From the NCBI RefSeq assembly GCF_988243305.1, contig NZ_OZ547136.1: a DNA stretch of 64,000 bases; one strand, given 5' to 3'. Positions within the stretch are counted from its first letter, which is position 1, and each line of letters opens with the position of its first letter. The notes beneath the pieces were generated by a model. That model searched no databases. It was not told the DNA's origin and was given only the letters and a program-made list of their open reading frames with translations. Shown here one piece after another: positions 29,320 to 29,496 of the stretch. The position numbers and the translations under genes are program-made.

Positions 29320-29496
29320 CCGTAGTATCAAAAGTTTTGCCGATTTTAGAATAAACGATTAATTATTGCACAATCGGTATCAAATAGACTTTAAGCGCTC
29401 ATCCAGACATCACCTGTTTTATTTCAGTATCTTACAGGTGATTTCACCTCCTTTCACTAAAACCCTCGTTGGTATCAAATGATTCACCTGGTTACA
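29320..29496. repeat. prophage terminal region with three GTATCAAA repeats (candidate transposase binding sites)
   Basis: GTATCAAA at ~29324, ~29377 and ~29472; element ends ...CA at 29496. Confidence 0.5.

Follow-up and report, generated by a model that had tools for sequence, protein, structure and literature searches.

Three short repeats at the left end of an Sp18-type Mu-like prophage in Escherichia coli dcyD are very probably transposase-binding cores

Background

The 64,000-nucleotide stretch of contig NZ_OZ547136.1 analysed here, which we call the window throughout, contains three copies of the AT-rich octamer GTATCAAA in some 180 bp of non-coding DNA at the edge of a prophage. The original prediction, made from the sequence alone, was that this layout is that of the three transposase-binding sites at an end of a Mu-type element. 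This raises the questions of whether the repeats indeed mark such an end, which protein would recognize them, and whether they could instead be sites of another protein, relics of a dead element or a product of chance. Here we address these questions by combining an analysis of the window with comparisons to related elements in complete genomes, phage records and the IMG/VR collection.

The repeats in the window

A count of the exact motif located GTATCAAA at 29325-29332, 29377-29384 and 29472-29479, all on the + strand. Thus, the repeats that had been reported at about 29324, 29377 and 29472 are real, with exact starts at 29325, 29377 and 29472; read inward from the end of the prophage they correspond to TTTGATAC on the - strand. 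Scanning both strands of the 64 kb recovered a single further copy, at 9282, which lies within a coding sequence as the codons for F-D-T and whose position is not kept in a relative; we considered it as a central site and rejected it on both grounds. The window-wide count of four copies against 1.9 expected is unremarkable, at least four being reached in 16 of 100 shuffles. As a null for the clustering we simulated 100 composition-matched windows and counted every case of an 8-mer with three same-strand copies inside 180 bp. Such triples arise 0.57 times per 64 kb, or about 0.002 times in a single pre-specified 180-bp stretch, and about 42% of the simulated windows hold at least one. As the real window also has several other such triples, that of GTATCAAA is by itself weak evidence, and for this reason the weight of the argument below lies on the position of the repeats and on their comparative behavior.

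The other same-strand 8-mer triples include a GGTTTTTC family at 7117, 7132, 7147 and 7285 (window 7114-7292), CATCAATA at 33234, 33261 and 33396 (33234-33403) and CGGCGGCA at 38114, 38166 and 38228 (38114-38235). Additionally, ATCCATAA occurs three times, at 20623, 20667 and 20709 (steps of 44 and 42 nt), in a low-GC (42%) stretch of the prophage that is partly non-homologous to the related element Mu_JNE082796 and may represent an accessory gene.

The left terminus and its insertion in dcyD

Alignment to the E. coli chromosome begins exactly at 29497, within dcyD, and the host side is 99.8% identical to the uninterrupted locus, where the gene order is tcyN-tcyL-dcyD-tcyJ-fliZ-fliA and where the sequence without the insertion is ...CGCCTGT|TGTAGGTT. 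The prophage interrupts dcyD behind codon 234 of its 328 codons, and a search of 5,426 complete E. coli genomes turned up no such insertion. On the phage side, the same end (697 bp) is present in many complete E. coli genomes at unrelated loci, with all matches ending between 29496 and 29500; the sequences adjoining it include an MFS transporter gene, irp1, terB, recX, tssM, creC and other prophages, among more. Insertion of the prophage is thus near-random across loci. With the junction between element and host at 29496|29497, the copies of GTATCAAA fall at nt 18-25, 113-120 and 165-172 of the element, and the left terminus is TG/CA, with the sequence TGTAACCAGG. The features of this region are:

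29321..29496, - strand: left end (equivalent to attL), a 176-bp conserved block with L1-L3 and the L1-L2 spacer
29472..29479, - strand: L1 core TTTGATAC, exact motif, nt 18-25 from the left terminus
29377..29384, - strand: L2 core TTTGATAC, nt 113-120 from the left terminus
29325..29332, - strand: L3 core TTTGATAC, nt 165-172 from the left terminus
29495..29496, + strand: terminal CA-3' (read as 5'-TG on the - strand), where the left end is predicted to be cleaved and joined to the target
29497..29500, no strand: TGTA, predicted copy of a 4-bp target-site duplication, by analogy with the 4-bp duplications of relatives
29497..30200, - strand: 5' fragment of host dcyD (D-cysteine desulfhydrase), from alignment to the uninterrupted locus

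If full sites have the extent known from Mu, the putative sites of about 22 bp would span approximately 29470-29491 (L1), 29375-29396 (L2) and 29323-29344 (L3). A second copy of TGTA is predicted to adjoin the right end, beyond the window. The terminal 176 bp (29321-29496) are 99.4% identical to the end of Mu_JNE082796, and the adjacent 28819-29320 is without homology to it; the start of the repeat region at 29320, as originally proposed, therefore coincides with a real boundary. A scan of the prophage end for promoters and terminators gave none that were convincing.

Gene content and mosaicism of the prophage

The genes just inside this terminus code for a repressor, a Ner-like regulator, the transposase and a MuB-like ATPase, and their order and facing are those of Mu:

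1..29496, - strand: visible part of the Mu-like (Sp18-type) prophage, colinear with Mu_JNE082796, leaving the window in tail/baseplate genes
28651..29235, + strand: c-like repressor, transcribed toward the end (PHROG 3037 transcriptional repressor, E 2e-59)
28235..28483, - strand: Ner-like early regulator (Pfam HTH_35; PHROG 769)
26143..28233, - strand: transposase A of the MuA family, 696 aa (Pfam Mu-transpos_C and HTH_Tnp_Mu_1; PHROG 310, E 1e-211)
27658..27843, - strand: candidate end-recognition segment, transposase codons 131-192, in an Ibeta-like subdomain
25128..26069, - strand: MuB-like AAA+ transposition ATPase (Pfam Phage-MuB_C and AAA_22)

The first ORFs of the window, compared with the annotation of relatives, are of baseplate, circularization and tape-measure size. 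The transposase aligns colinearly with MuA at 22% identity (pairwise E 5e-11) and, over 90% of its length, shares about 30% identity with the D3112-type transposase. The repressor is the counterpart of a 194-aa CDS annotated in complete relatives. Homology to Mu_JNE082796 is lost at 28819 and returns at 29321, 4 nt to the inside of the L3 core; the intervening 28819-29320 comprises the C-terminal two thirds of the repressor and 85 bp downstream, and matches the copies of O157:H7 type. The breakpoints indicate that recombination replaced most of the repressor gene and left the end module untouched.

A search with ARAGORN found no tRNA in the prophage part of the window. RefSeq annotates a 'tRNA-OTHER' in two relatives (L191 20167-20246 and L193 24034-24114), between the head-morphogenesis and virion-morphogenesis genes.

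The opposite end and target duplications in relatives

By the colinear alignment, base 1 of the window matches a position in Mu_JNE082796 that lies about 9.9 kb from its right end, and a search of the window for right-end sequence, even with 3 mismatches allowed, found none. Since the right end of this prophage lies some 9.9 kb past base 1, we examined relatives for the inverted motif at the opposite end. In four complete elements of 38.8-40.0 kb, about 90-99% identical and inserted at four different loci, TTTGATAC stands 18/113/165 nt from the left terminus and, inverted, 18/40/75 nt from the right one; only two further copies are present in the ~39 kb of each. Likewise, the Yersinia phage vB_YpM_5, whose transposase is 77% identical, has three copies of TTTGATAC at each end, inverted between the ends, the left-hand steps being 104/42 and the right-hand ones 22/35. 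The motif thus recurs in inverted orientation at the other end in all four complete relatives and in the Yersinia phage, as the original prediction had anticipated. Accordingly, the right junction of the prophage in the window is predicted to read ...AATCGCCTGTTGTA|TATAGCGCGGCGATTTTTTTGATACC..., with TTTGATAC at nt 18, 40 and 75; a scan of IMG/VR with the predicted right junction in the form GCAATCGCCTGT N2-7 TATAGCGCGGCG returned no match. In a search of E. coli genomes for the right end that carried 200 bp of lambdoid flank, matches to the flank dominated, and the top match, H90, was of use. In the circular record of vB_YpM_5, the right terminus is connected to the left one by 79 bp (L004 4654-4732), probably packaged host DNA in an assembly artefact typical of transposable phages.

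The right termini of the relatives begin with 5'-TATAGCG or 5'-TAAAGCG, that is with TA and not TG (L003, L191-L193, L201-L205, L004), and some relatives have TA at the left terminus too (TATAACCAGG, TATAGAGAGG). All seven relatives with complete insertions (L003, L191, L192, L193, L048/L201, L049/L203 and L051/L204) show a target duplication of 4 bp, namely CATC, GATA, GTAC, TTAC, CTTT, AGGA and GATA, and a 5-bp reading fits none of the seven. The GenBank record LC727881 (Mu_JNE082796) also annotates a 4-bp duplication. An alternative reading of the JNE element, with a 5-bp duplication (GATGA) and TG...CA ends, was ruled out by three further insertions.

Conservation of the cores and alternative core types

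To examine conservation more widely we collected 62 IMG/VR loci encoding relatives of the transposase. The triple is present at the same spacing in every IMG/VR locus with a transposase at least 91% identical and enough upstream DNA. In IMG/VR relatives whose neighboring repressor/ner region has only 56-72% identity, the terminal 176 bp are 78-99% identical. At the L2 position, the relatives L013 and L015 carry TTTGATAT. When 12 sites from three elements are compared, the invariant block is TTTGATAC(C/T), with a weak A/T preference upstream; it counts against transposase sites that only 8-9 nt are conserved per site, fewer than the 22 bp of a full MuA-type site. An alignment of diverged left ends reveals that the invariant columns are the cores and the outer half of L1 (AGGTRA). 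The L1 core is invariant in all TTTGATAC-type relatives, the adjacent AGGTRAATCA included, and the TTTGATAC triple is invariant even in a phage whose end is about 65% identical overall. A two-copy scan of IMG/VR with TTTGATAC N14-44 TTTGATAC gave, among the matches listed, mostly chance-like ones and was set aside.

More distant relatives have other cores in the same arrangement. Those with a transposase 72-76% identical lack TTTGATAC and have three copies of TTCAAGATA in the same left-end layout; in a scan of their contigs for a three-copy pattern, the right ends show TTCAAGATA in the opposite orientation to the left ends, at nt 18, +22 and +35. The Klebsiella phage Kp4852-3 has the core TTTTGCAY in the same register, and the Pseudomonas phage VW-6B has TTYTGGAC (right end only, the left end appearing to have been trimmed from the record); the transposases of these two phages are 42-46% identical. 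Their R1 outer halves (TGTAGAGCGGCG and TGTAGCGCGGCG) resemble the TATAGCGCGGCG of the TTTGATAC group and recall that of Mu R1. The loci behind these four core types are L045-L054, L201-L205, L005 and L006.

The spacer between L1 and L2 has features of its own. At 29406-29445 and 29427-29433 there are an inverted repeat (GACATCACCTGT / ACAGGTGATTTC), the words AGGTGA and TCACCTG, which recur, and AAGATAC, a degenerate version of the core. All of these are kept in the E. coli subgroup, but neither in the Yersinia lineage nor in that of TTCAAGATA, where the spacer is instead similar to that of Mu (CCGGGAGGA...GGGATYTGATGGGAT). This could be a pac site or a site for a host factor.

A transposase segment that covaries with the core

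To identify the part of the transposase that might read the core, we compared its successive regions across the motif groups. Residues 101-200 are 73-100% identical to the copy in the window in 20 of 20 TTTGATAC-type relatives and 49-50% identical in six of TTCAAGATA type. Over residues 201-650 the identity is 87-89% whether the diverged TTTGATAC group or the TTCAAGATA group is compared, and residues 1-100 vary independently, from 36% to 100%. The substitutions specific to a motif group concentrate in residues 131-192.

An AlphaFold model of residues 1-270 (from a 27-sequence alignment; mean pLDDT 78.6) has a winged-helix domain at 1-70, a disordered linker, and helical domains at 93-202 and 212-270; the modelled helices 140-152 and 179-191 fall inside the variable segment. 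The best Foldseek match is MuA Ialpha (1tns), with a modest TM score of 0.69 on the target, and lower-ranked matches include TnsB transposases and the DNA-binding domain of the Mu repressor. The predicted fold of this N-terminal region resembles MuA Ialpha and Ibeta. In MuA, Ialpha binds the enhancer, and Ibeta and Igamma bind the ends, with three sites per end (PMC3362531). In our model-based assignment the Ibeta-like segment appears to track the core of the end, and the Ialpha-like domain appears to vary independently of the end motif, a pattern that is suggestive and would fit the MuA model. Residues 131-192, within the Ibeta-like subdomain, are accordingly a suggestive candidate for the reader of the core. 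Because few lineages are involved, with one clean switch and two distant phages, relatedness could explain part of this covariation.

These patterns raise the possibility, which we rate as somewhat short of an even chance, that one lineage of Mu-like phages from enterobacteria and Pseudomonas is divided into discrete and mutually exclusive end-specificity types, four of them visible here (TTTGATAC, TTCAAGATA, TTTTGCAY and TTYTGGAC), in which a cassette of residues 131-192 and all six sites are replaced jointly on a fixed core and geometry with a 4-bp stagger. If this holds, co-resident transposable prophages of different types would not cross-mobilise or interfere with each other.

Identity of the repeats and alternative explanations

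Taken together, the repeats are very probably the transposase-binding cores L1-L3 at the left end of a Mu-like prophage of Sp18 type that transposed into E. coli dcyD. The reading of the region as three putative transposase sites at a Mu-type end, as first advanced, is supported by the position of the repeats at the terminus, the gene order, the Mu-like spacing, the other end of relatives, the persistence of the cores where their surroundings diverge, and the joint change of all six cores with one segment of the transposase; the transposase is, on these comparisons, the probable protein that binds them.

The alternative that fares best, though it is improbable, is that the repeats bind some other protein, such as the repressor, the Ner-like protein, a pac recognition factor or host IHF/HU. 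In its favor, the left end of Mu contains a pac site and an HU site, and the spacer in the present case has its conserved inverted repeat, from which it follows that other factors probably act somewhere in the 176-bp end. Furthermore, the L and R ends of Mu are said to carry repressor sites besides those for MuA (PMC3820752). Against this, the cores stay unchanged in relatives in which the repressor/operator/Ner region has diverged to 56-72% identity, and equally where the Ialpha-like, repressor-related first 100 residues of the transposase are only 48-70% identical; they switch, by contrast, jointly with transposase residues 131-192. A pac site is needed at one end only, while the motif is found three times at both ends in inverted orientation. 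As for the host factors, TTTGATAC is unlike the IHF consensus, which counts against IHF, and HU binding is not sequence-specific, which counts against HU.

Less probable again is that these are true transposase sites left in a dead, fixed and defective remnant. The window shows only some three quarters of the prophage, which leaves some room for this view, but none of the ORFs for the transposase (696 aa), the MuB-like and Ner-like proteins and the repressor is truncated, and many copies elsewhere have a transposase that is 97-99% identical. Moreover, members of the family sit at many loci, in as many as 5 places in a single genome, from which recent transposition of the family can be concluded, and Sp18 DNA is packaged in O157 Sakai (PMC2669165). 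Finally, a functionless chance recurrence of an AT-rich 8-mer in an AT-rich non-coding stretch, with which the insignificant window-wide count and the frequency of 8-mer triples in simulated and real windows would agree, is next to negligible and has effectively been refuted by the relatives, as a triple is hardly ever expected in one pre-specified stretch of 180 bp, recurs inverted at their other end, is invariant in the phage with the ~65% identical end, and in the TTCAAGATA lineage gives way, at both ends and in the same register, to another triple.

If the repeats are transposase-binding cores, the end would, by analogy with Mu, work as follows. Monomers of the 696-aa transposase would bind each site through an Ibeta/Igamma-like N-terminal part, with residues ~131-192 reading TTTGATAC. 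The three left sites, together with three inverted right-end sites at 18, 40 and 75 nt, would allow the two ends to be paired in a transpososome. The DDE core would then nick at the terminal ...CA-3' (29496) and join the 3' ends to target DNA with a 4-bp stagger, the MuB-like ATPase supplying the target.

Implications

The analysis fixes the exact left boundary of the Mu-like prophage, which inactivates dcyD in this strain. It also provides a signature by which Sp18-type prophages can be found and delimited, namely TTTGATAC at nt 18/113/165 on the left and 18/40/75 on the right; prophage finders often mis-delimit such elements because they have no attachment site. The natural variants of motif and protein constitute a ready set for probing how MuA-type transposases read their ends, and are relevant to the engineering of orthogonal systems of Mu type or of the TnsB type found in CAST. 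The finding does not change the understanding of transposable phages; two side points deserve mention, the duplication of 4 bp and the discrete types of specificity, for which there is a candidate recognition cassette.

Comparison with known systems

The end would work like a Mu end and is an ordinary feature for such phages. As in Mu, there are three sites per end, inverted between the ends, and L1 is set apart from L2 and L3, the steps being 95/52 in this prophage, 104/42 in the Yersinia phage and, measured between CGAAA cores, 105/40 in Mu; the Mu cores lie at ~21, 126 and 166, as against 18, 113 and 165 here. The R1-R2 step of 22 nt is common to Mu and the relatives of this prophage. Again as in Mu, the core lies in that part of the site which is farther from the terminus, the site itself beginning within a few nt of the end; the register of L1 matches that of ACGAAAA in Mu L1, and the R1 outer half TRTAGCGCGGCG of the relatives resembles the TGAAGCGGCGCACG of Mu R1. 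The order repressor, ner, A, B and the random-looking insertion are likewise those of Mu.

There are also clear differences. The core is TTTGATAC here and ...RCGAAA in the Mu consensus, so that the original remark that the motif departs from that consensus of CGAAA type was right. R3 is inverted in Mu, consistent with the Mu sequence that we compared, whereas in the relatives it is direct, at +35. The right terminus of the relatives, and some of their left termini, have 5'-TA where Mu has TG, their target duplication is 4 bp in 7 of 7 cases as against 5 bp for Mu, and the transposase is only 22% identical to MuA. Given these differences in core, R3 orientation, TA terminus and duplication length, the prophage falls outside the specificity group of Mu itself; failure to match the 22-bp consensus of Mu does not bear on whether the mechanism is shared.

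Among the closest elements is Mu_JNE082796 (LC727881), a Mu-like phage within an Stx2c phage, with which the prophage is colinear and, in the parts that both have, 89-99% identical in nucleotide sequence. The JNE Mu-like phages of STEC were described as Sp18-like and variably located (PMC10132054), and Sp18 of O157:H7 Sakai is a packaged, non-circularising Mu-like prophage (PMC2669165). By sequence, then, the prophage in the window is assigned to the Sp18 type via Mu_JNE082796, which its authors called Sp18-like. Its end is 98% identical to copies in O157:H7 genomes. Unlike Mu_JNE082796, it lies in dcyD and has the C-terminal two thirds of its repressor in common with the O157:H7-type copies. 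A literature search found no paper describing the end repeats of Sp18-type phages.

With respect to the transposase, the prophage is nearer to the D3112/B3 type (about 30% identity) than to MuA. The D3112-like phages have three putative 22-bp sites per end and 5'-TGT termini, the sites being placed at 10, 93 and 124 on the left (L) and at 4, 46 and 93 on the right (R), where R1 is inverted relative to R2 and R3 (PMC4378225). They differ from the prophage studied here in motif, tail type and host, and phages of D3112/B3 type show a 5-bp offset between the two insertion orientations (PMC5977238), as against the 4 bp of the present group.
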